From a phage: DNA of 45,695 nucleotides. Below are positions 28,186-45,619 of this stretch, piece after piece (the first letter of the stretch is position 1; each line of letters starts with the position of its first letter). Both the position numbers and the translations under genes were made by a program. The stretch lies in NCBI GenBank assembly GCA_032325415.1, contig GCA_032325415.1_4119.2; one strand, 5' to 3'. The notes under the pieces were generated by a model. That model saw nothing but the letters and a program-made list of their open reading frames with translations. It was not told the DNA's origin and did not search any database.

Positions 28186-28186
28186 C

Positions 28187-28215
28187 TTGACAGTACTTTT
28201 CATTACTGATATAGT
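28187..28215 (+). promoter_or_regulatory. internal sigma70-like promoter within array
   Basis: -35 TTGACA 28187-28192, 17-bp spacer, -10 TATAGT 28210-28215. Confidence 0.5.
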
Positions 28216-28244
28216 ACACTAACGTTAATCATAGGGTAAAAATT

Positions 28245-29743: not shown

Positions 29744-29946
29744 TGCAAAAGATTAATACGATAACATTAAATGCATTACAGGATTCATTATTAGATAGTA
29801 TTAAGATGTATTACAATATACATTTGAAGGGTGGTATTGATAATTACGATTATTATTTGAGTTTAATTACATTTGAGCACCTTTCAGTACAGGACAGGAT
29901 TTTACATCCTACAAATCCTAGGTATCCATCGATAGGTAAATTATGA
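29743..29946 (+). CDS. hypothetical protein (67 aa)
   Basis: Track ORF; start overlaps the 29582..29743 stop; next gene joins by ATGA. Confidence 0.5.
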   Translation: MQKINTITLNALQDSLLDSIKMYYNIHLKGGIDNYDYYLSLITFEHLSVQDRILHPTNPRYPSIGKL

Positions 29947-30491: not shown

Positions 30492-30792
30492 AATGATGTA
30501 TACCCCAGATATGATTTATGTTGAATTAGAAGATGATGACGATGGGTGGAATTTGATTTATTCAAGAAGTTCAGGTTGGTACATGGCACATTTAAATGAT
30601 TCGATAGTTACAGATTATTTTGTAGATTTCAATACATTATCCGATGAAGAATTGTTCCAACAGCAATTAGTGATTGACACGGGTGGTTATGATGTCTTAT
30701 TATTAAAAAAGATACAGAAAGCTGTTATTGATTTTAAGCCCATGATATGGCAAAGGAAATATTATGACCTCGAAGTACCGTACCAGCAATGA
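30481..30792 (+). CDS. family-B paralog (103 aa)
   Basis: Track ORF; LSDEELFQQQLVIDTGGYDVLLLKKIQ. Confidence 0.6.
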   Translation: MKYKMMYTPDMIYVELEDDDDGWNLIYSRSSGWYMAHLNDSIVTDYFVDFNTLSDEELFQQQLVIDTGGYDVLLLKKIQKAVIDFKPMIWQRKYYDLEVPYQQ

Positions 30793-31330
30793 AATTCAGT
30801 ACACCTACGCTAATGCAATCCTTATGGGACAAAAGTTAGCTTGTATTGTTGCAGCCTTATATAATGCCCAGAAATATCACAAGCGTCATTTCCACAAATG
30901 TATTGGTATTATTCCATCGAAGTACAATACATATATTGTGTGCACGAGTCATTTTGATAAACGATTCAATACACCTGATACCCCAAATTCCCGTAGTGTT
31001 ATTGGTCTTTTAGATTTCGCCCCTGGTGCTGTTATTGGAAAGAATGATTTAGAGTACGCATGGTATAATAAAAATTCCCCATTAGTAATGGTAACATATG
31101 ATAAAGAAACGAACAAAACAATAGAGTACAATACATATAAATCAGAGGAAGAATTTTTCCAAGGTTCATTGCTTGTACCAGTGCGTTTATTGTTTTATAA
31201 TGTCATAATGAGTACAGTACACAATAGTCCATTACACAAGAATCACAAAATTAATTTCAATTTTTGTGCTTATGCGATTGATGGTGTATATGAGTGTTTA
31301 ATGGAGGTATTGAGTTATGAAGCTGAATAA
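30764..31330 (+). CDS. family-B paralog (188 aa)
   Basis: Track ORF; SEEEFFQGSLLVPVRLL. Confidence 0.6.
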   Translation: MTSKYRTSNEIQYTYANAILMGQKLACIVAALYNAQKYHKRHFHKCIGIIPSKYNTYIVCTSHFDKRFNTPDTPNSRSVIGLLDFAPGAVIGKNDLEYAWYNKNSPLVMVTYDKETNKTIEYNTYKSEEEFFQGSLLVPVRLLFYNVIMSTVHNSPLHKNHKINFNFCAYAIDGVYECLMEVLSYEAE

Positions 31331-31658
31331 TACATTTGATATTAATAAGTTAAGAGAATGGTTTTATAGTATTGAAATTGAAGCCATCCCGTATCATAGA
31401 TATGAACAATATAATTTAACCAGTATTGATATCAGTGAGTTGTACGCGTATTATCAAAGTGCATTAGAGATGCATAAGTTATTTTTGAGTACAGATTTTG
31501 TTCTAAATTACAATTTTGAGGAATTTAATAATTATAATTTAGTACAGAAATATGTAGTAGCAAAGTACATGTACCTTCAAGGAATTACAAGTATAGTGGA
31601 ATTCAATACAGTCCTTGCTTTAGTTGAGGTAATTTTATGCAGTACATGTATGATTTAG
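31317..31658 (+). CDS. family-B-like paralog (113 aa), degenerate motif
   Basis: Track ORF; SELYAYYQSALEMHKLF. Confidence 0.5.
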   Translation: MKLNNTFDINKLREWFYSIEIEAIPYHRYEQYNLTSIDISELYAYYQSALEMHKLFLSTDFVLNYNFEEFNNYNLVQKYVVAKYMYLQGITSIVEFNTVLALVEVILCSTCMI

Positions 31659-32143
31659 AGTTCAGCTTAGATGCTGCATTTAAATATGTTCACAAGATAG
31701 AAACAATATACAGTACATTATGTGCAATAAAATCAGTAACAGAAGAGCTTGATGTTGGTGAAAGGTATCAGGTGTGGAATAATTCATTTTTTAATAAAGA
31801 ACATTCTGCGACGGTATTTTATATTTTAGCATTTAATCCCAGCAATTGTTACCCAGAGAAGCATGAACGTTATCCAAATGACGACATGTGGTTTGAGTAC
31901 AAAGAAGATGCTGATATGTCGTCAATTGAAGTTCCTGATGATTTTAATGCACAAGATTTAACAGAAGAGTGGTGGTTCCAGCAGAATTTAGTACATGATG
32001 ATATTGATTTATTTTTCTATATTGCATTTAAAATGCTTTATCACAACAATATAGTTAAAGAAAGTGTATCGTTTTCATGTCTATATATTGATGATTTGTA
32101 CAATGAAATTCAAATAAACATGCCCAGAACGCCTGTATCGTAA
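31637..32143 (+). CDS. family-B paralog (168 aa)
   Basis: Track ORF; LTEEWWFQQNLVHDDIDLFF. Confidence 0.6.
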   Translation: MQYMYDLEFSLDAAFKYVHKIETIYSTLCAIKSVTEELDVGERYQVWNNSFFNKEHSATVFYILAFNPSNCYPEKHERYPNDDMWFEYKEDADMSSIEVPDDFNAQDLTEEWWFQQNLVHDDIDLFFYIAFKMLYHNNIVKESVSFSCLYIDDLYNEIQINMPRTPVS

Positions 32144-32169
32144 GATATGGGCTTTTTTTCGTTTTGGTA

Positions 32170-32198
32170 TTGACATAGAAGACCAAAGCTGTTATCAT
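32170..32198 (+). promoter_or_regulatory. internal sigma70-like promoter within array
   Basis: -35 TTGACA 32170-32175, 17-bp spacer, -10 TATCAT 32193-32198; preceded by GCCCA...TGGGC hairpin plus T7 run (terminator-like). Confidence 0.45.
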
Positions 32199-32226
32199 GT
32201 GTATTCATTTTAAAGGAGAACATATA

Positions 32227-32739
32227 GTGAGTTTCATAATCCCAAGTACATACGAAGATGCATCAAGTGCAGTTCATAAGATTCATTATATTTTTAATTT
32301 AATTATTAGATCTGCAAAAATTAAAATGTATGCACCTCTTGTGACAAATAATCGAAATGAAGAAATTTTTATTAGCACAGACAAAATTATTTTTCCATAT
32401 TTCAATGAAGATAGATTGTGGTTCATACATTTAGCTGCATTACAAAAATATAAGATGTCAATTCGTAATAATTTGGTTATACCGTTATATCATCCAGATA
32501 TTGGAGAGGATGAGTATTTTCAGTACAGTACAGTACATCGCCATGAAGATATCTTTGTTGCTATGCTTATTGCTAAATTGAACACCGTTGATTTGGAGTA
32601 CCACAAATACAATAATAAATCATGTAAGATCATAATCCCTGCATTCATAGCTCTTTATGATTATGTGGTGCATAACAAAAAAGATGATACATATGCTTTC
32701 AATGAAGAGTATTTGGATTTTTTTAAGGATAACATATGA
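32227..32739 (+). CDS. family-B paralog (about 170 aa; GTG start, track start 32197)
   Basis: SD AAAGGAGAA precedes GTG 32227; motif IGEDEYFQYSTVHRHEDIFV. Confidence 0.55.
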   Translation: MSFIIPSTYEDASSAVHKIHYIFNLIIRSAKIKMYAPLVTNNRNEEIFISTDKIIFPYFNEDRLWFIHLAALQKYKMSIRNNLVIPLYHPDIGEDEYFQYSTVHRHEDIFVAMLIAKLNTVDLEYHKYNNKSCKIIIPAFIALYDYVVHNKKDDTYAFNEEYLDFFKDNI

Positions 32740-33275
32740 GCAGTACAACAGTATCAAAAGTACAGAAAGCAATGTCATTCAATGAAATTGGTACATTTAA
32801 AGATAAGATCATTGATTGCCTTGAATACATGATTTGTAGTAATATCGAAAGTATCGAGATATTTAACAAGACAAATCGCTCTTACCATATGATGTACATT
32901 GCAAACAATAATGGTATCATTCCATTTATTTCGGATAGTACAATATGGTACGCATGTGATACGAAAAAAACCACAATAGGTTTACATTTATTTGAGACAC
33001 ATTATGATCTAATTATTCCTGAACATTGTATGCAAGAAGAAGAATATTTTCAAATGCAATGTATACATTCACCATTAGTGTTGTTTAGTTTATATATTAT
33101 ACCTTATATCACCAAATGTGTTCATGACAATAAAGCTCCGTGGAATCATGAATTTGTATCGTTGAAGTTATTGTATAATGTATTAGTAGAATATTATGAT
33201 TACAGGCACAATGGTACAATCAGTGATGTATGGGATTTTGAATCGCTAAGGGTGAAAACATACACAGGTGAATGA
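32736..33275 (+). CDS. family-B paralog (179 aa)
   Basis: ATGA overlap; CMQEEEYFQMQCIHSPLVLF. Confidence 0.6.
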   Translation: MSSTTVSKVQKAMSFNEIGTFKDKIIDCLEYMICSNIESIEIFNKTNRSYHMMYIANNNGIIPFISDSTIWYACDTKKTTIGLHLFETHYDLIIPEHCMQEEEYFQMQCIHSPLVLFSLYIIPYITKCVHDNKAPWNHEFVSLKLLYNVLVEYYDYRHNGTISDVWDFESLRVKTYTGE

Positions 33276-33891
33276 TATGACCAGAATTAAAATGTATGAT
33301 TTGATGCAGTACAGTAAAATTGCCATTCCAGTGCTTAATAAAGTGCTGGATGCATTCATTGCCAAATACCCTGAGAATTCAGTGTTATGTATTCCATTTA
33401 GTGTTCCAGATAAAGATGATATATTCCAAGTGAATGTCAGTACACGTGGTATTACATTACAGCAGAAATACATGGATACGGAATATTATGGAATAAAGTT
33501 GGATTCAGTACAGGGTTCAAAATCAGCCTATGATTTTTTTGTTCCTAATAATATAGAGTCATGGGAAACAAACATTTCAAAGAAAGATGAAAATGATGTT
33601 CCTATTAGTGGTGTGTTCAACAATAAAGTTTTTTATTATTACGAAACCGACAAATTCCCTGAAGAGTTATATTACAATTCAGAAATGAATGAAGATGTAG
33701 ATGCATTCATGTTTCAATTATCTTTAGTACATGATATCATTGATGTTAAAGAGTTAAGAGCAGAAATCAATTTAGCTAAAGAGTTATCGGACATGCTGCC
33801 ACCGTTTAGTATGCTTTTTTGTGAAGGTGGTTATTTTTCAAAAGAAGTGTTTGAACATTTCGTAGATGTTGTAAAAGGGTTGGATATATAG
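33268..33891 (+). CDS. family-B paralog (207 aa)
   Basis: Track ORF; DVDAFMFQLSLVHDIIDVKELRAEI. Confidence 0.6.
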   Translation: MNDMTRIKMYDLMQYSKIAIPVLNKVLDAFIAKYPENSVLCIPFSVPDKDDIFQVNVSTRGITLQQKYMDTEYYGIKLDSVQGSKSAYDFFVPNNIESWETNISKKDENDVPISGVFNNKVFYYYETDKFPEELYYNSEMNEDVDAFMFQLSLVHDIIDVKELRAEINLAKELSDMLPPFSMLFCEGGYFSKEVFEHFVDVVKGLDI

Positions 33892-33892
33892 T

Positions 33893-34087
33893 ATGCTTAC
33901 AGTTGATGTTAAACAAAAATACCGTAAGTTTGATTGGTTCACCGACAGTTTCCAGCTTGAATTATTACATTTGAATATCTGTGAAACATTATGTGCAGAA
34001 ACACAAGATGAATTTGATGATAGAGTGATGAACATAGTAATGCTTTCTTGCTTTAAACATTTTGGTTATTTTTTCGGACAGAATTGA
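33893..34087 (+). CDS. hypothetical protein (64 aa)
   Basis: Track ORF within array. Confidence 0.45.
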   Translation: MLTVDVKQKYRKFDWFTDSFQLELLHLNICETLCAETQDEFDDRVMNIVMLSCFKHFGYFFGQN

Positions 34088-34095
34088 GGTAAAAA

Positions 34096-34611
34096 ATGCA
34101 TCAACACAAGCATCATTCATATGATTTTGCAATTAACATTATGAAGTTCATTCGAGCGTTGGAGGATGGGAAGCTTAGTCATAAGTACACCAAAGTGGGT
34201 GACAATTGGTTCAGAAATGATGATGAGTTCAGAAGTCATAAGATTGTTTACAGCAATAATTACAGTGCCAATTACCTACAAGATGTAGTGATGTGTTTTG
34301 AATACGTGTTGCAGTTCAGGGGTTCAATCCAGGATGAGTTGATGGAGCACATGTACATCAGATACCTTCCAATGCTCAAAGATGAAAATGTATTATTAAA
34401 TTCAATATACCAACGAGTTCGTGAAATTGAGTGCAGGGATATATTAGATACAGAAGAATCGTATTTCCAGCAATCCCTGATTTATGCACCTGATTTATTA
34501 CAGGTACATAATTTGTTTAATACATTACGTCAAAACATCAGTACAGACATATTTTTGTCATTATCGGATTATGATACATTTGTCAAAGATTTAGAGGAAA
34601 TAGGTTTATGA
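34096..34611 (+). CDS. family-B paralog (171 aa)
   Basis: SD GAGG then ATG 34096; LDTEESYFQQSLIYAPDLLQVHNLF. Confidence 0.6.
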   Translation: MHQHKHHSYDFAINIMKFIRALEDGKLSHKYTKVGDNWFRNDDEFRSHKIVYSNNYSANYLQDVVMCFEYVLQFRGSIQDELMEHMYIRYLPMLKDENVLLNSIYQRVREIECRDILDTEESYFQQSLIYAPDLLQVHNLFNTLRQNISTDIFLSLSDYDTFVKDLEEIGL

Positions 34612-34952
34612 GTCGATTTTCGGTTTATATAGTAAACGTCAGTAAAGATGGTAGTTTAATTGAATTTGATGTAGTTGATAACAATGATAATTCATATGGT
34701 ATTAAGGTACAGGACAATGATGTACAGTTCAGTACAAGGACAAATTTTGAGAATCCAGTCCAAGTTCCGAATTTCATAGAAGATGAAGCTGCACGATTCC
34801 AATACGAAACGGCATATGACAATGTACATATGCATATTATTATGCAACAGAGTTTAGTTCAATTAGTTCCTTTGTTCAGACAAAATATATATGTACATGA
34901 AGTGTCGATTAATGGCATTCAAAGTTCCGTTTTGTTCGGTACAAATATGTAA
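34608..34952 (+). CDS. family-B paralog (114 aa)
   Basis: ATGA overlap; EDEAARFQYETAYDNVHMHII. Confidence 0.55.
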   Translation: MSRFSVYIVNVSKDGSLIEFDVVDNNDNSYGIKVQDNDVQFSTRTNFENPVQVPNFIEDEAARFQYETAYDNVHMHIIMQQSLVQLVPLFRQNIYVHEVSINGIQSSVLFGTNM

Positions 34953-34962
34953 GGAAAGTACA

Positions 34963-35505
34963 ATGAGTTTATTAGATACATTAGAAAAAGACAGAAGTGC
35001 AATTAAGCGTTTAAAAGAGCAAGTACAAAAGATTGTATACAACGTTGATAAGTTTGAAGTCCCAGGAAGATTTGGTGATATTTCCCATACGGAGATCAAA
35101 TCCCTTAAGTCAGATTTGTTGATTAAAAATAAAAATGGGTTGATTTTAGTTTTGAGTTCAGATATGATGGGGGCAACACATAGTTATAATGCAGTATCGG
35201 TGCGTTCAGAGTGTGAAGGTATATATCTATCACAGGGTTTCAATAGCGAGACACAGGTTTGTTTTTGTGATGCAGTACATGACCCTATGAAGTTCACGAG
35301 AAGTGAAGCCCAAGCGTTATTAGAGCTATCAGACGAGAGTTTGTTTCAGTACAGTACAATGTATGACAATGATAAGCTTCGTTGTATGTACGCTGTAAAG
35401 CATTATACACAGGAGTTTTCTGGATTTGCATACCTTTTAGTTAGAACCAATACCAGATATATTGATATGTTAGAAGATTACATCGATAAAGTTGTTAATG
35501 TATGA
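34963..35505 (+). CDS. family-B paralog (180 aa; track start 34891)
   Basis: SD AAGGAAAG then ATG 34963; LSDESLFQYSTMYDNDKLRCMY. Confidence 0.6.
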   Translation: MSLLDTLEKDRSAIKRLKEQVQKIVYNVDKFEVPGRFGDISHTEIKSLKSDLLIKNKNGLILVLSSDMMGATHSYNAVSVRSECEGIYLSQGFNSETQVCFCDAVHDPMKFTRSEAQALLELSDESLFQYSTMYDNDKLRCMYAVKHYTQEFSGFAYLLVRTNTRYIDMLEDYIDKVVNV

Positions 35506-35687
35506 TGTATGATTATGTGATGGTATAATGCTGATGAAAGAGTTATTTGAAGATCAGTTCAATACATATGTGGATAATATTCTTTATTCCAGCCGTGCTA
35601 GTCAACGAGGAAATCGTGCTTACAATATAGATTACCTATTAGTGGTGCTGAGTTCACAGTACACCTACGCTGTACAGAGGACATATT

Positions 35688-35891
35688 ATGAATAATTTTA
35701 GAGATGTTGCTAAGGAGAAGTTCAAGTGCAGTTTAGATTTTGGGTTAAATGATTTTCTGACATGCACAATGTACAGGAATGATGATTATGAGCAATCCGT
35801 AATTTCGTTGCACAGATATTTCGAAATAATTTACGCAAGATATCTTAGAAGGTTAGAGGGAATAGGGGATTGGAATTATGATTACGTTTGA
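35688..35891 (+). CDS. hypothetical protein (67 aa)
   Basis: Track ORF; upstream gap holds a possible 56-aa ORF (35528..35698) sharing QYTYA with the 30764 gene. Confidence 0.45.
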   Translation: MNNFRDVAKEKFKCSLDFGLNDFLTCTMYRNDDYEQSVISLHRYFEIIYARYLRRLEGIGDWNYDYV

Positions 35892-36102
35892 AGAGCCGGA
35901 AGTGGCATATTGCTTTAGTGTGAAAGGTTTTGAATTCATGATGGATTCTATTTTGAAGGATACATATTTGGTTCAGATTGCAGTTGCAGATAATACAGAT
36001 AATGCATTACAGCGAGTATTGAATATATACGAGAGGACGAGTCGAAGGCTTTGTGCGATGAAAAGGATTGAAGAAATCAAGGTTTCTAGGCTGAATAAAT
36101 AG
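35878..36102 (+). CDS. hypothetical protein (74 aa)
   Basis: Track ORF, overlapping start. Confidence 0.45.
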   Translation: MITFEEPEVAYCFSVKGFEFMMDSILKDTYLVQIAVADNTDNALQRVLNIYERTSRRLCAMKRIEEIKVSRLNK

Positions 36103-36111
36103 AGACGTTTC

Positions 36112-36250
36112 ATTTTGACAGGCCGCAGGGGGGTCAAAAAAATTTCCGCTGAAAAACATGCTAAGGTATATGTTTAATATAAAGTTTTATATTGTGTTTT
36201 TCAGAGTACAGGGCATGTTTCCTGAAACAAAAAATACCCCGCCGCCGCAA
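36112..36250. repeat. imperfect inverted repeat with GC-rich arms flanking an AT-rich core, inside the AT-rich array
   Basis: GGCCGCAGGGGGGTCAAAAAAATTTCCGCTGAAAAACATGC versus GCATGTTTCCTGAAACAAAAAATACCCCGCCGCCGC (reverse-complement related); non-coding. Confidence 0.45.
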
Positions 36251-36299
36251 CGTGCTCCTTATATTGGAGTTTACCTTATTAATTATAGTAGAGATTAAG

Positions 36300-36677
36300 A
36301 TGGAAATAAAATATAATGAATTTTGTGCAAGGACATGGATGTACACTGGTGAGTTAGTTACGCACTCTAACTTATACAAGGGTGATTTAAACTACGCTAG
36401 GGACAAGATTTTAAAGTACTGGAATGCTGACTTTTATTTGATGGATTTTAGTACTGGGTTTAGGGGTAAAGCAACCGAGATGTTGGACTATACAGTACTT
36501 GATGATGCTGCACTGTTTCAGGAGGCATTAGTATTTGATAAGAAGTACATCTGTACATTAGAAGAGATGATTGAAATCCAGCGTAGAATTAAATGTATTC
36601 ACAGAGAATGTATAGACATCTGGTGCAGTACTGGTGAAGATGATTTTTGTAATCATTTCAATCTAGGGGAAGAGTGA
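36300..36677 (+). CDS. family-B paralog, B1 subgroup (125 aa; track start 36192)
   Basis: ATG 36300; LDDAALFQEALVFDKKYICTLEEMIEIQ; upstream part of the track ORF crosses the inverted-repeat region. Confidence 0.55.
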   Translation: MEIKYNEFCARTWMYTGELVTHSNLYKGDLNYARDKILKYWNADFYLMDFSTGFRGKATEMLDYTVLDDAALFQEALVFDKKYICTLEEMIEIQRRIKCIHRECIDIWCSTGEDDFCNHFNLGEE

Positions 36678-36838
36678 TGGAATTTGATTTTTTAATATCA
36701 GTACATTCTTTTAAGCACAGTTATCAGTACTTTTGTAATTTAAACAAAGGTGATTTGATTATGGATACAGATACAGAGGCTGTATACAGTTCTAATATTC
36801 TGTACAAATTCAGTACTAATCTGAAGGAGATTTTATGA
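36677..36838 (+). pseudogene. truncated duplicate of the N-terminus of the 37206 gene (53-aa ORF)
   Basis: MEFDFLISVHSFKHSYQYFCNLNKGDL is near-identical to the first 27 aa of 37206..37562, then diverges and stops; lacks the family-B motif. Confidence 0.45.
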
Positions 36839-37206
36839 AAAAAGAAATTAGAATTCAATTCGGTATGAGGAAAAAAGAGGTCATCTGTACACTGAATCAT
36901 GCGGTCGTGGAAAGCCTTGGTGGTGCATTACAAAAATTCTCCCATTTTGTTCTTGTACTATATGAAAATGGGTCTTTTAAAATCTTCACATATGATGATT
37001 CAAAAAATTACCGTAATGATTTTGTAAATCTGACAGTACTGTCAGAAGAGGAATTCTTTCAGGAAAGTACTGTCTGGAATTTACCAGGAGCACCAATTGA
37101 ATACGTCCGTGCTACACAGGCAGAAATGATCAAAGTAATGCAGAACTATCCAGAAGATTATATGACTAAGTTTCCTGAATCTATTTATGTAGAGGTTGAG
37201 TACTGA
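36835..37206 (+). CDS. family-B paralog (123 aa)
   Basis: SD GAAGGAGA then ATG 36835; LSEEEFFQESTVWNLPGAPIEYV. Confidence 0.6.
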   Translation: MKKEIRIQFGMRKKEVICTLNHAVVESLGGALQKFSHFVLVLYENGSFKIFTYDDSKNYRNDFVNLTVLSEEEFFQESTVWNLPGAPIEYVRATQAEMIKVMQNYPEDYMTKFPESIYVEVEY

Positions 37207-37562
37207 TGGAATTTGATTTTTTAATATCAGTACATACTTTCAAGCACAGTTATCAGTACTTTTGTAATTTAAACAAAGGTGATTTAATGCACAGTGCAAA
37301 TGAGTATATTCATTACACTCAGGGTAAATTTACATTCATTGATTACAGTTCATTACAGTATCCACACCAAGATATGCCGGACTATACATTAATGGATACC
37401 GCAGAACTATTCCAAGAATCATTAGTATTTGATAAGAAGTACTTGTGTACATTTGAAGAAGTTATTGCAATACAAAATGAAATGAAAGAGTATGCTGCTT
37501 TGCATAAACCCAATGCAAGTATTAATCAAGAATACAAATTCAATTTAGGAATTCAAGAATGA
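37206..37562 (+). CDS. family-B paralog, B1 subgroup (118 aa)
   Basis: Overlapping start; MDTAELFQESLVFDKKYLCTFEEVIAIQNEMK. Confidence 0.6.
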   Translation: MEFDFLISVHTFKHSYQYFCNLNKGDLMHSANEYIHYTQGKFTFIDYSSLQYPHQDMPDYTLMDTAELFQESLVFDKKYLCTFEEVIAIQNEMKEYAALHKPNASINQEYKFNLGIQE

Positions 37563-37918
37563 CATATGATTATTCTATGTACTATTATAAGTTACCTAAA
37601 GGATGGGACTTGTGCTGTAATCTTATTAAGGGCGACTCGGAACATGAGTTGAGTTTATATATGCATTACAAAGATTCTTGTTTTAAATTTATTCATGTAT
37701 CACATGACGACTATGACTATGAATCTGAGAGTCTTATAGATTATACAGTACTGGACGATGGTGAACTATTTCAGGCTGCATTAGTGTTTGATAAGAATAA
37801 GTACTCCTGTACATTTGAAGAAATGGTTTCTTTGCAAAATGAAATGAAGAGATTTGAAAAAGAAAACGTATTTAATCCATCCCCATCAAGAACGAATAAT
37901 TATTATTTCAATATATGA
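37559..37918 (+). CDS. family-B paralog, B1 subgroup (119 aa)
   Basis: ATGA overlap; LDDGELFQAALVFDKNKYSCTFEEMVSLQNEMK. Confidence 0.6.
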   Translation: MTYDYSMYYYKLPKGWDLCCNLIKGDSEHELSLYMHYKDSCFKFIHVSHDDYDYESESLIDYTVLDDGELFQAALVFDKNKYSCTFEEMVSLQNEMKRFEKENVFNPSPSRTNNYYFNI

Positions 37919-37927
37919 GATTATAAA

Positions 37928-38419
37928 ATGACATTACAGAGTGCATTGAAAGAAGCAAAGAAGATTCATGAGTACATGATTATGGCAAAAGAAGGTTCAG
38001 TTTACGGTGTTTTCAAAGACACAAGTACTCAATATTATGTACCGGATAACCTCCTTTATAATGACTGCTCAGATACAGAAACGTGTGTACTGGATACAGA
38101 AACGTGCATACTAGATACCGACCCTAATGATTATGAATGCTTCATTAATATGCATAATGAGTACATGGTCTATATTAATGATACAGATACCATCAACAGT
38201 ACTGACAGCGATTCCAATGACATTATAATTCCGAGTGAAGTACTGGAAGGTCCGTGGGATAGTGAAGAGTATTACTTCCAACAGAGTACTGTATATGATA
38301 ATGAAGTACTTGATGTTATTATAATTATGTGGTACTTTAAAAGTATTGGTTCTGGGAACTTCTATTTCGATTACAAATACGTAAAGAAAACTGTAGATAA
38401 CGGTATTAACAGGGGTTGA
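37928..38419 (+). CDS. family-B paralog, B2 subgroup (163 aa)
   Basis: N-terminus MTLQSALKEAKKIHEYMIM; C-terminus LEGPWDSEEYYFQQSTVYDNEVLDVIIIMWYFK; internal tandem repeat DTETCVLDTETCILDTD. Confidence 0.65.
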   Translation: MTLQSALKEAKKIHEYMIMAKEGSVYGVFKDTSTQYYVPDNLLYNDCSDTETCVLDTETCILDTDPNDYECFINMHNEYMVYINDTDTINSTDSDSNDIIIPSEVLEGPWDSEEYYFQQSTVYDNEVLDVIIIMWYFKSIGSGNFYFDYKYVKKTVDNGINRG

Positions 38420-38420
38420 A

Positions 38421-38891
38421 ATGAGTTTAGAAAGAGCATTAGAGATTGCGAAGTTAATTGATTTATGCAGCAAAGAAATTGTAGCAAATTGTCTTAATGG
38501 ATATCTATTCAAGGAAGGTAAATCATATTGTCGAATGAGATACGATGACAGTAGTGAGTACATTCACATGTATGAAGAAAACTTAGATTCTTCTGAAACA
38601 ACACTCAATGGGTGTGATGTTAATTTGGAAGATAATTACATGTACTTCTGTCGTGATGCTGATATTTTAATACAAGATTCTGACATTATATCTGGTGCAG
38701 CAGAGAAACATCTTCCGTATTCAGTACTGGATAATGACTGGGGAAGTGAAGAGTACTACTTCCAGCAGAATACTATCTACGAGGAAGATGTACTTGACAA
38801 GCTTGTCATTCTGTGGTACTTTAATAATACAGATTGTCCTAGCTTCTATTTGGACTTGGATCTACTACGAGTTATTAAAGAGGATATATGA
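38421..38891 (+). CDS. family-B paralog, B2 subgroup (156 aa)
   Basis: MSLERALEIAKLI ... LDNDWGSEEYYFQQNTIYEEDVLDKLVILWYF. Confidence 0.65.
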   Translation: MSLERALEIAKLIDLCSKEIVANCLNGYLFKEGKSYCRMRYDDSSEYIHMYEENLDSSETTLNGCDVNLEDNYMYFCRDADILIQDSDIISGAAEKHLPYSVLDNDWGSEEYYFQQNTIYEEDVLDKLVILWYFNNTDCPSFYLDLDLLRVIKEDI

Positions 38892-39331
38892 GTTTAGCAA
38901 GTGCACTTGAACTAGCACACAGAATACATCACTTCCACGATAACATAAAAAGTGGGTTCTATGGTGATAAAGTAAGTGCATTTGGTGATGAGTATTATCT
39001 ATCAGGTATAAAGACATACTCTGATGATATTTTACTTATGGGACAGGATAAAGACAATACTATACAGTACTCTTCATGTAGTCAATATACTAGTTTTTTT
39101 GTATATATTCCAGGTACTAAGATTACGTTTGACACATCAAATGCACCTGTTGACTTCGGGGTACTTGATGGCCCGTGGGGTACTGAAGAGTATTACTTCC
39201 AACAGAGTTTCATTTTTAACCAAGAAATGCTTGATTCCTTGGTTGTGTTGTGGTACTTTAAGGAATTGAATTTTGAACCATTCTTTCTTGACTGGGGAGC
39301 ATGTGAATATTTAAGTACAGGGGATTTGTAA
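38888..39331 (+). CDS. family-B paralog, B2 subgroup (147 aa)
   Basis: MSLASALELAHRIHH ... LDGPWGTEEYYFQQSFIFNQEMLDSLVVLWYFK. Confidence 0.65.
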   Translation: MSLASALELAHRIHHFHDNIKSGFYGDKVSAFGDEYYLSGIKTYSDDILLMGQDKDNTIQYSSCSQYTSFFVYIPGTKITFDTSNAPVDFGVLDGPWGTEEYYFQQSFIFNQEMLDSLVVLWYFKELNFEPFFLDWGACEYLSTGDL

Positions 39332-39819
39332 TGTCATTACAAAGTGCATTGAAAGAAGCAAAGAAGATTCATGAGTACATGATTATGGTACAGGAAGGTT
39401 CAGTACCAGGTGTATATAAAACATCTGATACTGAATTTTTTGTAAAAGACCGTGACGATTATGACGAGTCCGAGATATGTGCAGAAACATTAGTACTGCA
39501 CACTGATACTGGTGACAGTGATAACTGTGAATATCATATGTACAATCAGTACATTAGTTATTGCCGTAATGAAGATATTACCATCTACAACACAGATAGT
39601 GATGCTGATGACACTATCATTCCTTATTCAGTACTGGAAGGTCCGTGGGATAGTGAAGAGTATTACTTCCAGAATACTACGTTGTACAATGAAGAAGAAT
39701 TAGATGTTATTGTAATTATGTGGTATTTCAAAAGTATTGACTCCAGTAGTTTCTATTTTGATTATGAATATGTAGAGAATACTGTAGGAGAAGGTAATGT
39801 CATTACAAAGTGCTCTTGA
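39331..39819 (+). CDS. family-B paralog, B2 subgroup (162 aa)
   Basis: MSLQSALKEAKKIHEYMIM ... LEGPWDSEEYYFQNTTLYNEEELDVIVIMWYFK. Confidence 0.65.
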   Translation: MSLQSALKEAKKIHEYMIMVQEGSVPGVYKTSDTEFFVKDRDDYDESEICAETLVLHTDTGDSDNCEYHMYNQYISYCRNEDITIYNTDSDADDTIIPYSVLEGPWDSEEYYFQNTTLYNEEELDVIVIMWYFKSIDSSSFYFDYEYVENTVGEGNVITKCS

Positions 39820-40249
39820 AAAAGCAAAAGAACTACATGGATACTTTGACGATATAAAGGCAGGAAAGTTCAAAGAAGTGTACAAAGCCGAGAACGGCAA
39901 CTACTACAAGGATGAAATGTATAATAACTCCGTTGGTGTAAGGGTTATTCTTGGGTTGAATTCCAATAGTCCTATATCGTTTTCTGAATACAATAGAGAT
40001 GCAGAATTTATTAGTTATGTTGAAAATGGTAGCATTCGTTTTATTAATCGCAAAAAACCATTAATTTTGAATTATGAAGTACTGGAAGGTCCGTGGGATA
40101 GTGAAGAGTATTACTTCCAAAACAGTACTGTTTACGATGATGAAGTACTTGAAGCATTAGTTATTATGTGGTACTTAAAGAGTGTTAACTGTCCTCGATT
40201 TTATTTGGATTTCGAAGAACTTCGTAAAGATCCAGAAGGTATAGAATGA
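39797..40249 (+). CDS. family-B paralog, B2 subgroup (150 aa)
   Basis: MSLQSALEKAKELHGYF ... LEGPWDSEEYYFQNSTVYDDEVLEALVIMWYLK. Confidence 0.65.
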   Translation: MSLQSALEKAKELHGYFDDIKAGKFKEVYKAENGNYYKDEMYNNSVGVRVILGLNSNSPISFSEYNRDAEFISYVENGSIRFINRKKPLILNYEVLEGPWDSEEYYFQNSTVYDDEVLEALVIMWYLKSVNCPRFYLDFEELRKDPEGIE

Positions 40250-40560
40250 AAAACTTATTCAGTGTTCAGTACGTCCCTGGTGAAATTAGTTTATTGTATC
40301 TGTTTGATCATGATAATTCATTATTACTAGTAGTAAAGAAATGCCAAGCTAGTTCATTTGTTGAATACATTCACGATAGTGAATATATACCTGATTTTTT
40401 AGAGTGTGATTATTACGATGAACATGAATCATTTATTTTCCAGGAATCGCTCGTGTGGGATAAATCGATCAACTTCTTTACGTTAATTGAATTACAAAAG
40501 CAGGTGAAGTATCATTGGAATTACTTAATCACACAGGATTACATTGAGATAGAAATATAA
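40246..40560 (+). CDS. family-B paralog (104 aa)
   Basis: ATGA overlap; DEHESFIFQESLVWDKSINFFTLIELQ. Confidence 0.6.
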   Translation: MKNLFSVQYVPGEISLLYLFDHDNSLLLVVKKCQASSFVEYIHDSEYIPDFLECDYYDEHESFIFQESLVWDKSINFFTLIELQKQVKYHWNYLITQDYIEIEI

Positions 40561-40868
40561 TGACTAAAAATGAATTTGATTCACTTTGTACGGTTTATAA
40601 TTCATTGACAGAAATACCTGACTTTATTAATTACATTTCAGCTTTAAATCAAATTATGCATAGTTTTGAACAATCGTTTGAAGAGAAATATGCTGGTAGA
40701 AAAGTTCTATGTCATATGTCAATGTACTTAGGAGATGGTGAGCCTTACACTACAAGTACTACATGTGAAATAAAAAAATATAATATATTATTGGGGACAA
40801 TAGAATTCACAGTATCCAATGGTGGTAGTTATATGTACTTTAGAGATGGAGTGGTTGAATTATTATGA
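40560..40868 (+). CDS. hypothetical protein (102 aa), no family motif recognised
   Basis: Track ORF joined to neighbours by overlapping start/stop. Confidence 0.5.
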   Translation: MTKNEFDSLCTVYNSLTEIPDFINYISALNQIMHSFEQSFEEKYAGRKVLCHMSMYLGDGEPYTTSTTCEIKKYNILLGTIEFTVSNGGSYMYFRDGVVELL

Positions 40869-41314
40869 GTTACGAAAGTGCAATCAAGAAAGCAAATGAT
40901 ATTCTACGCGTCGTTAAATTCTTCAAAGAAAATCCTGAATACTTAGCTGATGAAAACCATGATCACGATGAGAGATTGAGACGAAAAATTGTCGCTTTAT
41001 TTGACACTAATGCGGATAATTATAGTCTAATTGAGTTAGCATACGATTATATTTCATTGAACCGAAACGGCAATATAGTTAATATAGAAAGACATGCAAC
41101 TGAAGAATCTTTTAAAATTTCAGATATTTTATCCCTGAGTACTGAAGAAGGGTACTTCCAGGGTAGTACTGTTTATGAACAAGGGACACTTGACAATCTA
41201 TGCACATTCAGTGTAATATATCAGAAATCTGTACTAGATGTATTTTATCTTGACACTGCTGAACTGGATACACTAACCAATTTTGTTACTACTGAAGAGG
41301 CTACATTCGAGTGA
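40865..41314 (+). CDS. family-B paralog, B2-like (149 aa)
   Basis: MSYESAIKKANDILRVV ... LSTEEGYFQGSTVYEQGTLDNL. Confidence 0.6.
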   Translation: MSYESAIKKANDILRVVKFFKENPEYLADENHDHDERLRRKIVALFDTNADNYSLIELAYDYISLNRNGNIVNIERHATEESFKISDILSLSTEEGYFQGSTVYEQGTLDNLCTFSVIYQKSVLDVFYLDTAELDTLTNFVTTEEATFE

Positions 41315-41847
41315 TGAAAGTTAACATCAATGACTTTGATGCATTACAAGATTTATCAAAAAAGATTCGCACCATTGTACCAGTACTCAAAAAATGCAGT
41401 ACTGGTTTAATCGATCCTAGTACTGTTGTTAATGAGAAGTACAATTTTCATTATGTATTACAGGGTACTGGGGCATTCCAGAAGTGTGAGGTGCGTGAGA
41501 CACACGTAATTGATACATCATTGTTTTCTATTGGTGCACCTGTGTCGAATAATACTATTTTCCTAGACAACGCTGGAAATATTCAACAATTAACATTTAA
41601 GAAAAGGAAAAAGAACAATAACATTGGTGTGTATGCGATGAAGTGGGGTCAACCTGATTTGAAGCGTGAAATTCACATCCCTAAGTACAATTACAATGCA
41701 TTTGACGAACAGTGTTTTCAACTATCGTGTACTGACCCTGACTATGCTATCATTCAGTTCTATATGGAATTGCAGATAGCATTTAACAGTAATTTGTATA
41801 TTAACTTATTGGCGATTAACATTGATGAAGTATTCAAAAACATTTAA
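41311..41847 (+). CDS. family-B-like paralog (178 aa), degenerate motif
   Basis: ATGA overlap; FDEQCFQLSCTDPDYAIIQFYMELQ. Confidence 0.55.
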   Translation: MMKVNINDFDALQDLSKKIRTIVPVLKKCSTGLIDPSTVVNEKYNFHYVLQGTGAFQKCEVRETHVIDTSLFSIGAPVSNNTIFLDNAGNIQQLTFKKRKKNNNIGVYAMKWGQPDLKREIHIPKYNYNAFDEQCFQLSCTDPDYAIIQFYMELQIAFNSNLYINLLAINIDEVFKNI

Positions 41848-42043
41848 TCGAATTGAATACATGAGAACTGTGAGTGCAGTGTGGGACATATGGTTCACTA
41901 CTAAACCAAAAATGGATTACCATGACTTTAAGCTCTTGTTCTTCGTTGGCTCTAACAAACAGGATGTTGCAATGAAGGGTTATATTCAGCACTTACAGGA
42001 ACTAATCCAGAAGAGAATATATGAAAATAATAGACCAAAATGA
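41822..42043 (+). CDS. family-A-like small paralog (73 aa)
   Basis: Track ORF; VGSNKQDVAMKGYIQHLQELI. Confidence 0.55.
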   Translation: MMKYSKTFNRIEYMRTVSAVWDIWFTTKPKMDYHDFKLLFFVGSNKQDVAMKGYIQHLQELIQKRIYENNRPK

Positions 42044-42212
42044 CATTGCTAAACTATTCAATATATATTCTACTAGAATGATGCAAACAGACTCATATAG
42101 TACTGAATTCAAAGAGTTGAAAGTCCTGATGTACTTGGGAACCCAATATCAGGAACAAGTTATTTTGGAATATATTAATTCGCTGAAGAAGGATATCCGT
42201 TATGTACGATGA
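42021..42212 (+). CDS. family-A small paralog (63 aa)
   Basis: Track ORF; LGTQYQEQVILEYINSLKKDI. Confidence 0.6.
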   Translation: MKIIDQNDIAKLFNIYSTRMMQTDSYSTEFKELKVLMYLGTQYQEQVILEYINSLKKDIRYVR

Positions 42213-42762
42213 TTTAGATATTGCGTTTGAACGTATGGTAATTTTAATGCAATGTGCAGAAATGCATGAAACAATCCGTCGCACCAAAGGGATTGAATAT
42301 ACAAGTAAACTATTCTCATACGAAAGTCGTCGAGGGATGGATCATTTTTACTGCACTGATTGTTCAAAGTTTTCAGTACTGAAATATTATCATCCTACTG
42401 TTTCCAATAATAGTTTAATATCCACATATGACGGTGTTCTGTTTAGTGTAATGTATGACACATTACATCCATCAATTTCAATCTATAAAGATTGCGATAG
42501 TAGTTTATCGTATATAATTGAAGATTACTTATCTCCTAATACTGAAGAGAATATTTTTCAGAACAGTGTGTTGCATGATGAATTAAGCATAAAATGCATC
42601 TATATGTTCAATAAGTTAAAAGAGTACGCCGATAATAATTACTTAATTGATAAGTTAGCAGTATTGTCTGTTTCCGTTTTTAATACAAATGACATTGATA
42701 TGAAATACTATAATGAGATTTGTAAAGTACATCATATGTATAAGGAACTATTATGTCAATAA
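42202..42762 (+). CDS. family-B paralog (186 aa)
   Basis: Track ORF; LSPNTEENIFQNSVLHDELSIKCIYMF. Confidence 0.6.
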   Translation: MYDDLDIAFERMVILMQCAEMHETIRRTKGIEYTSKLFSYESRRGMDHFYCTDCSKFSVLKYYHPTVSNNSLISTYDGVLFSVMYDTLHPSISIYKDCDSSLSYIIEDYLSPNTEENIFQNSVLHDELSIKCIYMFNKLKEYADNNYLIDKLAVLSVSVFNTNDIDMKYYNEICKVHHMYKELLCQ

Positions 42763-43355
42763 ATGCAAATAAATGTTGTAGTGCAGATGTGCATTTGTTT
42801 TTTAAGAAATTAGCAAATGATATTATATATATGCAGGAAATGATTTATCACAAACGAGCGGATTTAGAAAAAGCATTAGTACAGTTCTCATTTATGCTTG
42901 ATGGTGATATATTTCTAGAGAGTGATGCATTGCGAATAGTATTAGACAAAAATGCTAAAAGATTTTTATTTCATATAGATAATAAATTATGTTCCTCCGT
43001 ATGTCGTACTTTTTATAATCGTGATTCGGACTTATATCAATTCCTTTATTCTAAAGGTGCAGTAGAAGCATCATATGGTGATGGTTATGCCCTAGGAAAG
43101 AGTATTCCATTTATGAAATCATTTAAAATAGAACACATCAGTACTGATGAAGATGCAATGTTCACAAATGATATAACTATGGGACGTGAAGATGCAATGC
43201 GATATATTACAAATTCTATGCATACATTCTTTCAACGAACAGAATTTGATAATGTATATATATCAAATGTAAATATTTTCAATGACCTGTGTCAGTACTT
43301 GAGAAGTGTTTGTGATTTTGATGAAAGCTATTGTAAGCTTTATACTGAGGTATAA
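42753..43355 (+). CDS. hypothetical protein (200 aa), family-B motif not clear
   Basis: Track ORF in array. Confidence 0.5.
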   Translation: MSINANKCCSADVHLFFKKLANDIIYMQEMIYHKRADLEKALVQFSFMLDGDIFLESDALRIVLDKNAKRFLFHIDNKLCSSVCRTFYNRDSDLYQFLYSKGAVEASYGDGYALGKSIPFMKSFKIEHISTDEDAMFTNDITMGREDAMRYITNSMHTFFQRTEFDNVYISNVNIFNDLCQYLRSVCDFDESYCKLYTEV

Positions 43356-43360
43356 AACAA

Positions 43361-43723
43361 ATGAACACATTAAGTATTACATACTATACAACTAAAAAAT
43401 TAGTTACTTGTTTAATATCATTGAAGACAAACCATGATGATATGTTTGATATGGCTGCATATGAATTAGAATTATCAGAAGATGGCTTCAAGAGCTATGA
43501 AGTATATAGCTATGTTCGTGAAGATGTAATTGACACTACACTAATGCAAGAGGATGAGTTATTCCAAGAAAGTTTAGTATGGGATAATAAGTACGATTGT
43601 AACTTTGATTTCTTATGTTTAATCCAGAAAGAAATGAAAAGAATCTTTGATAATTATCCAGTGAAGAGATTGAGTACTGGACCGGAGCAGTACAGGAGAA
43701 TTTTATTCCGTTATGAAGACTGA
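43361..43723 (+). CDS. family-B paralog, B1 subgroup (120 aa)
   Basis: LMQEDELFQESLVWDNKYDCNFDFLCLIQKEMK. Confidence 0.6.
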   Translation: MNTLSITYYTTKKLVTCLISLKTNHDDMFDMAAYELELSEDGFKSYEVYSYVREDVIDTTLMQEDELFQESLVWDNKYDCNFDFLCLIQKEMKRIFDNYPVKRLSTGPEQYRRILFRYED

Positions 43724-44048
43724 ATTAGTGAAAGTAATGTACGCTACTCATATTAAACTACTACTTGTGAAATTTGATTATAATAAAAAACATAATGATT
43801 TCTATACTTTAATTCGTGATGAAAATACATTCTCCTTGCGATGCAACAATATACCGTTGAAGATAAATGATTTTACTTCACTTGACGAGGGTGAATTATT
43901 TCAAGAATCATTAGTTTTTAATAGTAATATAAAAATTGATATAGAAGTTATTAAAAAATACCAGATTTTATTGAACAAAATTATGAATTGTTATCCATGT
44001 GAAATAGGTGGTCATATGCAGTTCAAATCAAAAATGTATGAATTATGA
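43713..44048 (+). CDS. family-B paralog, B1-like (111 aa)
   Basis: LDEGELFQESLVFNSNIKIDIEVIKK. Confidence 0.6.
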   Translation: MKTELVKVMYATHIKLLLVKFDYNKKHNDFYTLIRDENTFSLRCNNIPLKINDFTSLDEGELFQESLVFNSNIKIDIEVIKKYQILLNKIMNCYPCEIGGHMQFKSKMYEL

Positions 44049-44055
44049 GGTTTAT

Positions 44056-44592
44056 ATGTTAGATAAAAAAATGAACTCTGGAACCCAATATAATCATCTT
44101 AAGTTGGATACATTCGAATCAGCTATCAGTACAGCACAAGATATAATTGATATTATCAAGTTCATTAAAGAAGATAAGTTCAAATGTTTGAAAATACTAA
44201 ATCGTTCAATGTACCGTGATAAAAATATTCATGTATCAGTACGTAGACCGAAAGAACAAGAAAGTGGGAGAGATTTCTATAACAACAGTGAGCAGTTCGA
44301 ATGTGAATATGATCCAGAATTTAGAGGTGGTTTCATGTGTTACTGTATGAAGGATACCTCACACATTGAGATACGTTCATCGAAAGGTGGCATACGTACA
44401 TTAGAGTTTATTGATATAGTTTTAAATCAGGAATACTACTTTCAACTATCATTATTGTTTCCTGCATACGATTTAGGAGTTCTATTCATGTATAAGTACT
44501 TTCATGAGCACTGGAATGAAGACTTCTATCTGGACTTAGAAGATTACCACTTAGTTTGGAAAGAAATGGTAAAACTTCGCAACCCATCTTGA
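44056..44592 (+). CDS. family-B paralog, B2-like (178 aa; track start 44008)
   Basis: SD GAGG then ATG 44056; FESAISTAQDIIDIIKFI ... NQEYYFQLSLLFPAYDLGVLFMYKYF. Confidence 0.6.
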   Translation: MLDKKMNSGTQYNHLKLDTFESAISTAQDIIDIIKFIKEDKFKCLKILNRSMYRDKNIHVSVRRPKEQESGRDFYNNSEQFECEYDPEFRGGFMCYCMKDTSHIEIRSSKGGIRTLEFIDIVLNQEYYFQLSLLFPAYDLGVLFMYKYFHEHWNEDFYLDLEDYHLVWKEMVKLRNPS

Positions 44593-44618
44593 CACCCTCC
44601 GATTCTTTGTGATATAAT
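44589..44618 (+). promoter_or_regulatory. internal sigma70-like promoter within array
   Basis: -35 TTGACA 44589-44594 overlapping the upstream stop, 18-bp spacer, -10 TATAAT 44613-44618. Confidence 0.5.
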
Positions 44619-44651
44619 CTCTTTATATTAATTGTAAAGGGTTATATCACA

Positions 44652-45128
44652 ATGTCCAAAGACCTATCATTTAGCAATGCACAAAAAATAGCAAAAGACA
44701 TTATCAGGGTTTATAAATTCCTTACAAATGTTACTGAAGATTTTTCCGTGGGCAAACATACAGTCAAAAAAAGAAATGGATACCTTTCCTTTATGGATGG
44801 GTTACTCTATAGTTCAGATGAATCAACTTGTAGTATTAGAGTGCTTGATGAAGTACCAAGTGGTGATTTTATTTCATACCATTTCCCAAGTTCAGATAAT
44901 TTCAAATACTACAATCATCATCTTATAAATGAAGGATTTGATACGGCTGAAATTAACACTGAAGAAGAGTTCTTCCAGTACAGTACTGTGTATCCAGAGA
45001 GGATTGTTTTCAGTTCAGTGATTTACACTGCCCTTAAAAATGAACTAAATTCAGATAGTGATCATTTCTACTTGGACCTGAACAATCTCGATTGTATTAT
45101 TGAGTACCTGGAGAAAAATGGTTTATGA
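44652..45128 (+). CDS. family-B paralog, B2-like (158 aa)
   Basis: SD AAAGGG then ATG 44652; FSNAQKIAKDIIRVYKFL ... NTEEEFFQYSTVYPERIVFSSV ... FYLDLNNL. Confidence 0.65.
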   Translation: MSKDLSFSNAQKIAKDIIRVYKFLTNVTEDFSVGKHTVKKRNGYLSFMDGLLYSSDESTCSIRVLDEVPSGDFISYHFPSSDNFKYYNHHLINEGFDTAEINTEEEFFQYSTVYPERIVFSSVIYTALKNELNSDSDHFYLDLNNLDCIIEYLEKNGL

Positions 45129-45619
45129 TTACTACAGAATATGATTACGATGGTGTTTTAGAATTTGCAGAAAATATCTATCGCATTGCAAAGGAGTTCA
45201 GAAGTCCTGACCCATTTGGTGGTATGTTCGAATACGATGAGTTTAGTTCATCCAAAGGAAGACTTGCGTTTACTAATGAAAGAGGTAATCAAATCTATGC
45301 CGAGTACTTTGATGACAATGACTTTCATTACAAAGCCGGATACATTTCATATTGCCCTGGGTCTGATTTGAAGATTAATATTGACAATTATAGAGAAGCA
45401 GTATTTGTTAAGTATGATGATTTAGTGCTCATGTCAGAGGAAATGTACTTTCAGGGTTCTTGTATTCATGATGTAAAAGTACTTAATGCTATGTTATTTT
45501 ATGGTGCACTACTTCATCATTACAAATACAAACAACGATTCTTTTTAGATTTAGTAGTATACTATAAATGCGTGGATTATTTGAATGCAAAATACGACAA
45601 CAATTCAGTACATGACTGA
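45125..45619 (+). CDS. family-B paralog (164 aa)
   Basis: ATGA overlap; LMSEEMYFQGSCIHDVKVLNAMLFYG ... FFLDLVVY. Confidence 0.65.
   Translation: MITTEYDYDGVLEFAENIYRIAKEFRSPDPFGGMFEYDEFSSSKGRLAFTNERGNQIYAEYFDDNDFHYKAGYISYCPGSDLKINIDNYREAVFVKYDDLVLMSEEMYFQGSCIHDVKVLNAMLFYGALLHHYKYKQRFFLDLVVYYKCVDYLNAKYDNNSVHD

Follow-up and report, generated by a model that had tools for sequence, protein, structure and literature searches.

Within a stretch of phage DNA of 45,695 nucleotides (nt; NCBI GenBank assembly GCA_032325415.1, contig GCA_032325415.1_4119.2), hereafter the window, five consecutive genes, g1 to g5, occupy positions 37928-40249. We found that these genes are old tandem paralogs in a lineage-specific multigene superfamily of RaK2-like jumbo phages, whose members share a conserved fold and are shuffled by recombination. 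The window comes from the left part of the genome of a jumbo coliphage, an Asteriusvirus; its 2.3-kb five-gene region is 99.3% identical to that of Escherichia phage BF17 and 93-99% identical to those of G17, PBECO4, phAPEC6, 121Q and further Asteriusvirus members. The genus Asteriusvirus consists of RaK2-like jumbo myoviruses of ~350 kb. Nucleotide searches with the five-gene array gave matches confined to Asteriusvirus-type Escherichia and Salmonella phages. The five genes are annotated as coding sequences in BF17, 121Q and other phages, and carry the label "hypothetical protein" in every record inspected.

An original prediction, made from the letters of this DNA, had described five consecutive related genes with conserved ends around a divergent centre, and this layout was borne out by the open reading frames (ORFs), by profile matches and by alignment. 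The genes lie on the plus strand and encode acidic proteins (pI 4.05-4.67, net charge -10 to -26): g1 (37928-38419; 163 amino acids [aa], pI 4.05, net charge -20), g2 (38421-38891; 156 aa, pI 4.10), which carries a 12-residue insertion after the N-terminal helix, g3 (38888-39331; 147 aa, pI 4.25), g4 (39331-39819; 162 aa, pI 4.05, net charge -26) and g5 (39797-40249; 150 aa, pI 4.67). The junctions range from -23 to +9 nt, the g4/g5 overlap being 23 nt, and this tight packing implies co-transcription. A purine-rich, Shine-Dalgarno-like stretch lies upstream of each gene. Against the profile hidden Markov models (HMMs) of PHROGs v4, all five proteins matched phrog_9317 (E 5e-55 to 7e-65; 2e-63 for g1) from profile position 1 to ~155-158 of 160.

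In the alignment of the five proteins, the N-terminal block reads M[ST]L..[AS]L..A..[IL], with M1, L3, A6, L7 and A10 invariant, and a C-terminal block of ~45 residues (the C block) reads VL[ED]G.W.[ST]EEYYFQ..[ST].[YF]...L...[VI][IV].WY[FL]......F[YF][FL]D. As for the N-terminal helix that the five genes were said to share, the first ~13 residues are common to all of them, but the 19-residue MSLQSALKEAKKIHEYMIM is found only in g4 and, with one change, in g1. The centres had been expected to differ almost completely; most pairs do, with 9-26% identity and many indels, except that the centres of g1 and g4 are 48% identical. The closest paralog of g1 is indeed g4, with ~57-60% identity overall. 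The charge of the centre varies from -17 (g1) to +2 (g5), and the C block is acidic in all five proteins. The internal repeats attributed to the centres are real in one gene of the five: g1 carries a tandem repeat at 38071-38118 (plus strand), detected by Tandem Repeats Finder (TRF) and by a repeat search, in which a unit of 21 nt (7 aa) is present in 2.3 copies and encodes DTETCVL/DTETCIL. The other four genes have no internal repeat.

Selection was assessed by comparing orthologs. The ratio of nonsynonymous to synonymous substitution (dN/dS, omega) is unusable at the level of the paralogs, since the synonymous sites of the centre are saturated (dS 1.5 to infinity; proportion of synonymous differences, pS, ~0.64-0.9) and the centre alignments are unreliable. 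We therefore took 10-13 genomes per gene, counted substitutions by parsimony on a neighbour-joining tree, and divided each gene into the N-terminal 20 codons, the centre, and the C block with the tail. One-to-one orthologs of each of the five genes occur in 10-13 phages from several countries, and most are 79-100% identical; the most divergent alleles are g4 of phage A4 (56%) and g5 of fEgEco12 and ph0011 (68%). Pooled over the genes, the centre had an omega of 0.32, compared with 0.26 at the N-terminus and 0.23 in the C block; each value departed from neutrality with p<1e-7 (p=9e-33 for the centre), and the difference between centre and C block was not significant (Fisher p=0.15). For the single genes, centre omega ranged from 0.25 to 0.46 (g2, 0.35; g4, 0.25), and pairwise Nei-Gojobori estimates between orthologs ran from 0.20 to 0.59 in the centre and from 0.17 to 0.27 in the C block. 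A loop of ~15 codons just before the C block gave a pooled omega of 0.61, with 1.23 in g2 (indistinguishable from 1) and 0.84 in g1; in sliding windows the loop reached 2.1-2.5, from very few changes.

Each paralog is kept as a 1:1 ortholog and is under purifying selection along its whole length. The centre had been called hypervariable, and this holds for comparisons between paralogs only; between orthologs in different phages the centre is conserved, and the elevation of central dN/dS over the termini that the original prediction anticipated was essentially absent. The divergent centre is the product of old paralog divergence under purifying selection and not a hypervariable binding site. 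To speak of diversified binding proteins is a conjecture placed on that old divergence, and we found no evidence of ongoing diversification.

The structures of g5 and g1 were predicted with AlphaFold2 from an alignment of 27 sequences. Both models are single domains with the same order of elements, with a predicted local distance difference test score (pLDDT) of 88.9 for g5 and 87.2 for g1 and a predicted template modelling score (pTM) of 0.84 for both. In the g5 model, a helix at residues 3-21 is followed by seven beta-strands within residues 30-91, a short helix at 93-97, a helix at 103-109 (EEYYFQN), in which EEYYFQ has a pLDDT of ~96-97, a helix at 115-129 (DEVLEALVIMWYLKS), a strand at 135-138 (FYLD) and a helix at 140-144. 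The model of g1 is of low confidence only at residues 46-54, which hold the first repeat copy (pLDDT below 50); the second copy is modelled as a strand at 58-63, so the duplication looks like a loop insertion. A BFVD model of the g3 ortholog of 121Q (A0A097EXS5) was superimposed on the g5 model by Foldseek with a TM-score of 0.85-0.87 at 34% overall identity, so the topology of the sheet appears to be conserved and its sequence not. In the g5 and g1 models the centre folds into a beta-sheet of seven strands and is not a disordered linker. SP27, RaK2, Serratia phage BF and GAP32 supplied weaker BFVD matches (E up to ~0.03); with 121Q, these RaK2-like phages gave the only structural neighbours, all of them predicted models of uncharacterised proteins. 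No similar fold was found in the PDB, and no enzyme family or solved fold was matched.

The predicted fold is one compact domain, in which an amphipathic N-terminal helix is followed by a seven-strand sheet supplied by the centre, by helices that contain SEEYYFQ and VL..LVIMWYFK, and by a short strand, FYLD. Since the invariant residues L3, A6, L7 and A10 fall on one face of the N-terminal helix (i, i+3, i+4, i+7), this helix probably packs on the C-terminal helices, and the two ends of the protein may be conserved because together they form a helical core. On the same models, the topology of the beta-sheet would be kept, with sequence, loop lengths and centre charge specific to each paralog.

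The five genes belong to a much larger set. An iterative HMM search seeded with them retrieved 28 ORFs of the window, spread over 27471-45619 on the plus strand, in which long forms of ~150-200 aa are interleaved with short forms of ~105-135 aa. In an alignment of 27 long-form members, F and Q alone never vary and the two Glu residues before them hardly do, which gives the hallmark [ST]EE.[YF]FQ.S (the FQ motif). As defined here, the superfamily has this motif followed by an amphipathic helix and a hydrophobic strand, and the long forms add the N-terminal helix. The copies that had been listed as related, at 40865, 44056 and 44652, are true relatives, mostly of phrog_12674, and a further one, absent from that list, starts at 45125. 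All are long-form paralogs on the plus strand. The first (40865-41314) matches phrog_12674 with E 1.5e-53 and phrog_9317 with E 3.5e-12; the second (44008-44592) matches the five-gene HMM with E 1.3e-8, and with 3.8e-35 after iteration, its likely start being an internal ATG at 44038 or 44056; the last two (44652-45128 and 45125-45619) both belong to phrog_12674. The two PHROGs families cross-match, the five genes being full-length members of phrog_9317 and the copies at 40865, 44652 and 45125 members of phrog_12674.

The array extends past the end of the window in BF17 and fEgEco12. The same iterative search applied to fEgEco12 found at least 41 members (41 of 670 genes) at 27.3-56.3 kb, a span of 29 kb. 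A profile search of 1.84 billion representative proteins yielded matches to only 111 cluster representatives. Twenty of these clusters were sampled; they consist mostly of Asteriusvirus phages or of E. coli assemblies with contigs of ~350 kb, with a few metagenome contigs, and one holds the Klebsiella phages RaK2, K64-1 and KP13-7. A scan of IMG/VR added two arrays, neither longer than 12 kb, whose members have the FQ motif and an N-terminal helix like that of the five genes: 18 tandem members at 826-11983 of an uncultivated viral contig of 108.9 kb (L010, IMGVR_UViG_3300007747_000009) and 13 tandem members at 3002-10112 of a contig of 345,809 bp (L011, IMGVR_UViG_2595698293_000001). These arrays indicate that the expansion is older than the divergence of Asteriusvirus from the Klebsiella RaK2 group. 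Apart from a few metagenome contigs, the superfamily is for the most part found only in RaK2-like giant phages.

The superfamily was already on record in PHROGs, divided among several families (9317, 12674, 28680, 13866, 15629 and others) with no function assigned. Those entries mention neither the shared fold nor the FQ motif, nor how large the expansion is. NCBIfam and PADLOC gave no match at E up to 0.1, and Pfam gave isolated chance-level matches only (E 0.05 or weaker). The RaK2 paper noted ~10% of the RaK2 proteins as paralogs. In the literature on Asteriusvirus, PBECO4, 121Q and jumbo-phage paralogs, we found no description of the superfamily. What is known is the PHROGs listing and, more generally, the existence of multigene families in jumbo phages; a function, a structure or a published description of this family was not found.

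Between phages, the array changes by gain and loss of whole genes, swapping of alleles, short gene conversion and repeat slippage, not by point hypervariation of the centre. Of the 13 phages examined, 10 have an ortholog of g1; fEgEco12, ph0011 and the WPEC phages (including WPEC5) lack it. A 61-aa gene upstream of g2 in fEgEco12 was considered as a remnant of g1 and rejected, since this small gene is unrelated and phage A4 has it upstream of g1 as well. For g5 there are two allele classes, with 92-100% and ~69% aa identity to the window copy. phAPEC6 and SP27 (loci L008 and L015), which are reported to be 99.77% identical genome-wide, share 96-100% identity through g1-g4 and drop to 70-75% exactly from the g4/g5 boundary, which indicates a recombination breakpoint and the exchange of a whole-gene allele. 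Within the window, 46 nt of g1 (37940-37985) are identical to g4 (39343-39388), both on the plus strand, and g1 of BF17 and 121Q differs at 4 of these positions. The dS between g1 and g4 is 0.16 at the N-terminus, where this tract lies, as against a C-block value of 0.86 and a centre value of 1.98; the identity, the low dS and the differences in BF17 and 121Q together point to a short and recent gene-conversion tract. The 7-residue repeat of g1 is single-copy in the orthologs of UE-S1 and A4.

Upstream of the five genes, a 54-aa ORF (36674-36838) and a short-form gene (37206-37562) have their first ~27 residues in common (MEFDFLISVH.FKHSYQYFCNLNKGDL) and then diverge. The 54-aa ORF is probably a truncated duplicate that arose by unequal recombination.

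The array lies near the left end of the genome. In fEgEco12, the physical genome ends and a direct terminal repeat of 20,993 bp have been verified by restriction digests (PMC13070987). The superfamily array of that phage begins a few kb inward of the ~21-kb left terminal repeat, and the counterparts of the five genes, at 38.8-40.7 kb, lie ~18 kb inward of it. The guanine-cytosine (GC) content of the window drops from 0.37-0.43 to 0.28-0.35 at ~21 kb, which matches the inner boundary of the repeat in fEgEco12. At this drop begins a second, unrelated tandem family of ~30 consecutive ORFs of 70-96 aa with the C-terminal motif [LF][LM]GT[NQ][YF]Q[EQ]. It occupies 21701-27481, 28782-29236 and 41822-42212 of the window, with a few copies scattered within the array of the FQ-motif superfamily.

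Candidate promoters were found within the array on the plus strand. A sigma-70 promoter with a full consensus match (12/12; TTGACA, 18 nt, TG-extended TATAAT) lies in the intergenic gap at 44589-44618, and two sigma-70-like promoters with 11/12 matches and an extended -10 element lie in the gaps at 28187-28215 and 32170-32198. Three of the six best plus-strand promoter matches fall in intergenic gaps, although such gaps, judged by eye, take up well below 10% of the region. Directly upstream of the promoter at 32170-32198 stands a hairpin that resembles a terminator and has a T-run (32131-32152); the pair looks as if it separated two early transcription units. The related phage PA5oct has small genes in its long terminal repeat that are expressed early, and transcription depends on the RNA polymerase of the host (PMC7318152); the paper on phage CBB proposes the same early role for its terminus-proximal block of small genes. 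A search of the literature found no transcriptome or time-resolved expression study of an Asteriusvirus.

Evidence on the virion comes from phAPEC6, in which mass spectrometry identified 62 virion proteins (PMC7247149). The orthologs of the five genes, gp438c-gp442c, are absent from this set, as is every gene numbered between gp347 and gp549. The five genes sit among other small genes, at a great distance from the structural modules, and none of the five proteins has an N-terminal signal-like hydrophobic stretch, a signal peptide or a transmembrane segment.

Two further readings of the FQ motif were considered and set aside. The letters of SEEYYFQ followed by N fit the E-x-x-Y-x-Q pattern of the tobacco etch virus (TEV) protease site, and E-E-[YF]-[YF]-F-Q-x-S matches both the TEV (E-x-x-Y-x-Q/S) and the 3C (L-F-Q/G) consensus. 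A site for a potyvirus NIa (TEV) or picornavirus 3C protease was rejected on the grounds that the motif is modelled as a helix in the core and that most members have a large P1' residue, such as N, Q, E, Y or L; the likeness is most likely coincidental. The segment Q-x-S-L-x-[FY] also recalls a site for binding the beta-clamp, for which the consensus is QL[SD]LF. This reading was dropped, as the models place the segment, well ordered, in the core and the five genes have T at position 4.

Given the retention of more than 40 diverged copies, we suggest that the paralogs are sub-functionalised binders directed against different host or phage targets. Our best guess is that they are early intracellular proteins that bind host factors. 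The proteins would be made early from host sigma-70 promoters and would act inside the cell as non-structural proteins; each paralog would have, in its sheet surface, a binding site for a target of its own in host or phage, the invariant EE..FQ.S helix would serve as a structural element or as a shared interaction site, and the array as a whole would amount to a set of host-takeover or anti-defence factors. In such binders for host takeover or anti-defence our confidence is no more than moderate. To the complete reading, in which old paralogs built on a helical core act as early intracellular proteins and bind different host or phage targets through paralog-specific sheets, we give an even chance of being correct.

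Several points weigh against this reading. The members of the superfamily are known from their sequences and from predicted models, and purifying selection fits any conserved function equally well and lends no specific support to binding or to anti-defence. The early timing draws on promoter-like matches and on analogy with the distant relative PA5oct, and the total count of promoter-like sites is not above the expectation from shuffled sequence. The models come from a shallow alignment of 27 sequences, and both the packing of the N-terminal helix and the exposure of the sheet are inferred. The invariant Gln and the two acidic residues could, moreover, mark a catalytic or ligand site common to all members.

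An unlikely alternative is that all members have one shared function: the [ST]EE.[YF]FQ.S helix and the C block would bind a single partner or ligand or catalyse a reaction, the sheet would tune stability, dosage or timing, and the paralogs would be isoforms. The invariance of F and Q and the near-invariance of the two Glu residues in the 27 aligned members are in its favour, as are the presence of the motif in both L011 and L010, the acidity of the C block in all five genes, and the fact that an invariant polar Gln is unusual at a purely structural position. The motif lies, however, in a short helix modelled with high confidence (pLDDT ~96-97), and the preceding S/T is a possible helix cap, which fits a structural role; no enzyme family or solved fold was matched, and more than 40 diverged copies with purifying selection in the centre are hard to explain if the C block alone matters. 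Somewhat less probable still is concerted evolution combined with drift, in which gene conversion or unequal crossing-over, together with translational-coupling signals, would keep the ends alike, the centres would be weakly constrained and the copies largely redundant. This would account for the 46-nt tract that is identical between g1 and g4 in the window and not in BF17, and for the gain, loss and swapping of genes between phages. It would also suit the C block, which is detectable at the nucleotide level in all five genes and has a dS (0.5-1.0) below that of the centre for most paralog pairs, and the 3' tail of each gene, which carries the purine-rich ribosome-binding stretch of the next. 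The centre omega of 0.32, however, is far below neutrality (p=9e-33), and the centre is confidently predicted as folded. The protein-level blocks, in addition, are kept in RaK2 and in metagenomic phage, while nucleotide matches are confined to Asteriusvirus-type phages; this conservation beyond the reach of nucleotide similarity indicates that selection on the protein, not homogenisation, maintains the blocks.

The two remaining alternatives have far lower probability. That the genes encode actively diversifying binding proteins, with a centre under positive selection or targeted hypermutation as in families driven by diversity-generating retroelements (DGRs) or in antigenic variation, is very improbable and has been largely refuted. 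In its favour, the proteins do combine a scaffold with a variable centre, the loop before the C block evolves at a near-neutral rate (1.23 in g2, 0.84 in g1), and repeat and indel polymorphisms occur. Against this, every gene has a centre omega within 0.25-0.46, with no significant excess over the C block, the orthologs are 79-100% identical in most phages sampled, and the fast loop is statistically indistinguishable from neutral drift. A repeat search over 37500-40700 found no DGR template/variable repeat pair over the centre, only diverged paralog blocks and the 21-nt repeat; on this result, together with the low centre omega and the conserved orthologs, a DGR or hypermutation was rejected. 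The least probable of all is that the proteins are structural or packaged, as part of a hair-like fibre, of an inner body of the capsid or as ejected proteins, and that their variable centres contact host surfaces. Asteriusviruses do have unusual hair-like fibres and an inner body with many unassigned proteins (PMC7247149). The absence of gp438c-gp442c, and of all genes numbered between gp347 and gp549, from the 62 virion proteins of phAPEC6 argues against such a role, as do the distance of the small-gene block from the structural modules and the lack of signal peptides and transmembrane segments.

More than 80% of Asteriusvirus genes are without a known function, and Asteriusvirus phages are under development for therapy. 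The recognition that 28 genes of the window, and 41 of the 670 genes of fEgEco12, form one structural superfamily simplifies this unknown fraction and tells experimenters where to look for host-takeover or anti-defence functions. The scale of the expansion, the invariant motif and the want of a relative in the PDB make the superfamily of moderate interest for phage biology. A bolder extension, which we regard as unlikely, is that, in RaK2-like jumbo phages, the ~30 kb adjoining the left terminal repeat would hold a repertoire of more than 40 proteins with a previously unseen fold, acting as pre-diversified, recombination-shuffled early inhibitors of separate defence or housekeeping targets. 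If true, this repertoire of early inhibitors would be the phage counterpart of the terminal multigene families of African swine fever virus (ASFV) and poxviruses.

The array can be compared with several known systems. Like the variable proteins of DGRs (the Mtd type, with a C-type-lectin fold), g1 to g5 combine a conserved scaffold with a localised variable surface; unlike in DGRs, their divergence extends over 60-80 residues with indels and is not limited to adenine-templated sites, and the orthologs are conserved. Bacterial polymorphic-toxin loci carry tandem arrays of immunity genes, and these resemble the phage array: in each, small acidic paralogs follow one another, have one scaffold in common, differ in the surfaces that set specificity, and are reshuffled by recombination. 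The phage array differs in having no adjacent toxin genes and no similarity to immunity families of Pfam, NCBIfam or PADLOC, and in lying in a phage and not in a bacterial chromosome. Among phages, T7 Ocr, the pre-early genes of T5 and the host-takeover module of SPO1 are early host-takeover or anti-restriction genes. Those sets consist of unrelated genes, whereas the array here holds more than 40 paralogs, and no homology or fold similarity was found between them. What they share is that they encode small, often acidic, non-virion proteins near a genome end, and the strong host-type promoters and early timing of those sets may hold for the array as well. Finally, large eukaryotic DNA viruses have terminal multigene families, such as MGF110, MGF360 and MGF505 of ASFV and the host-range families and gene "accordions" of poxviruses. 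The sequences and the fold of the phage superfamily are unrelated to these, its host is a bacterium, the array has no experimental link to host range or immunity, and no recent amplification of copy number is visible in it, the dS between paralogs being saturated. The likeness lies in the arrangement: in both, diverged paralogs stand in tandem near a genome end, copy number and alleles vary between strains, and the products are non-structural, with a presumed role against the host.

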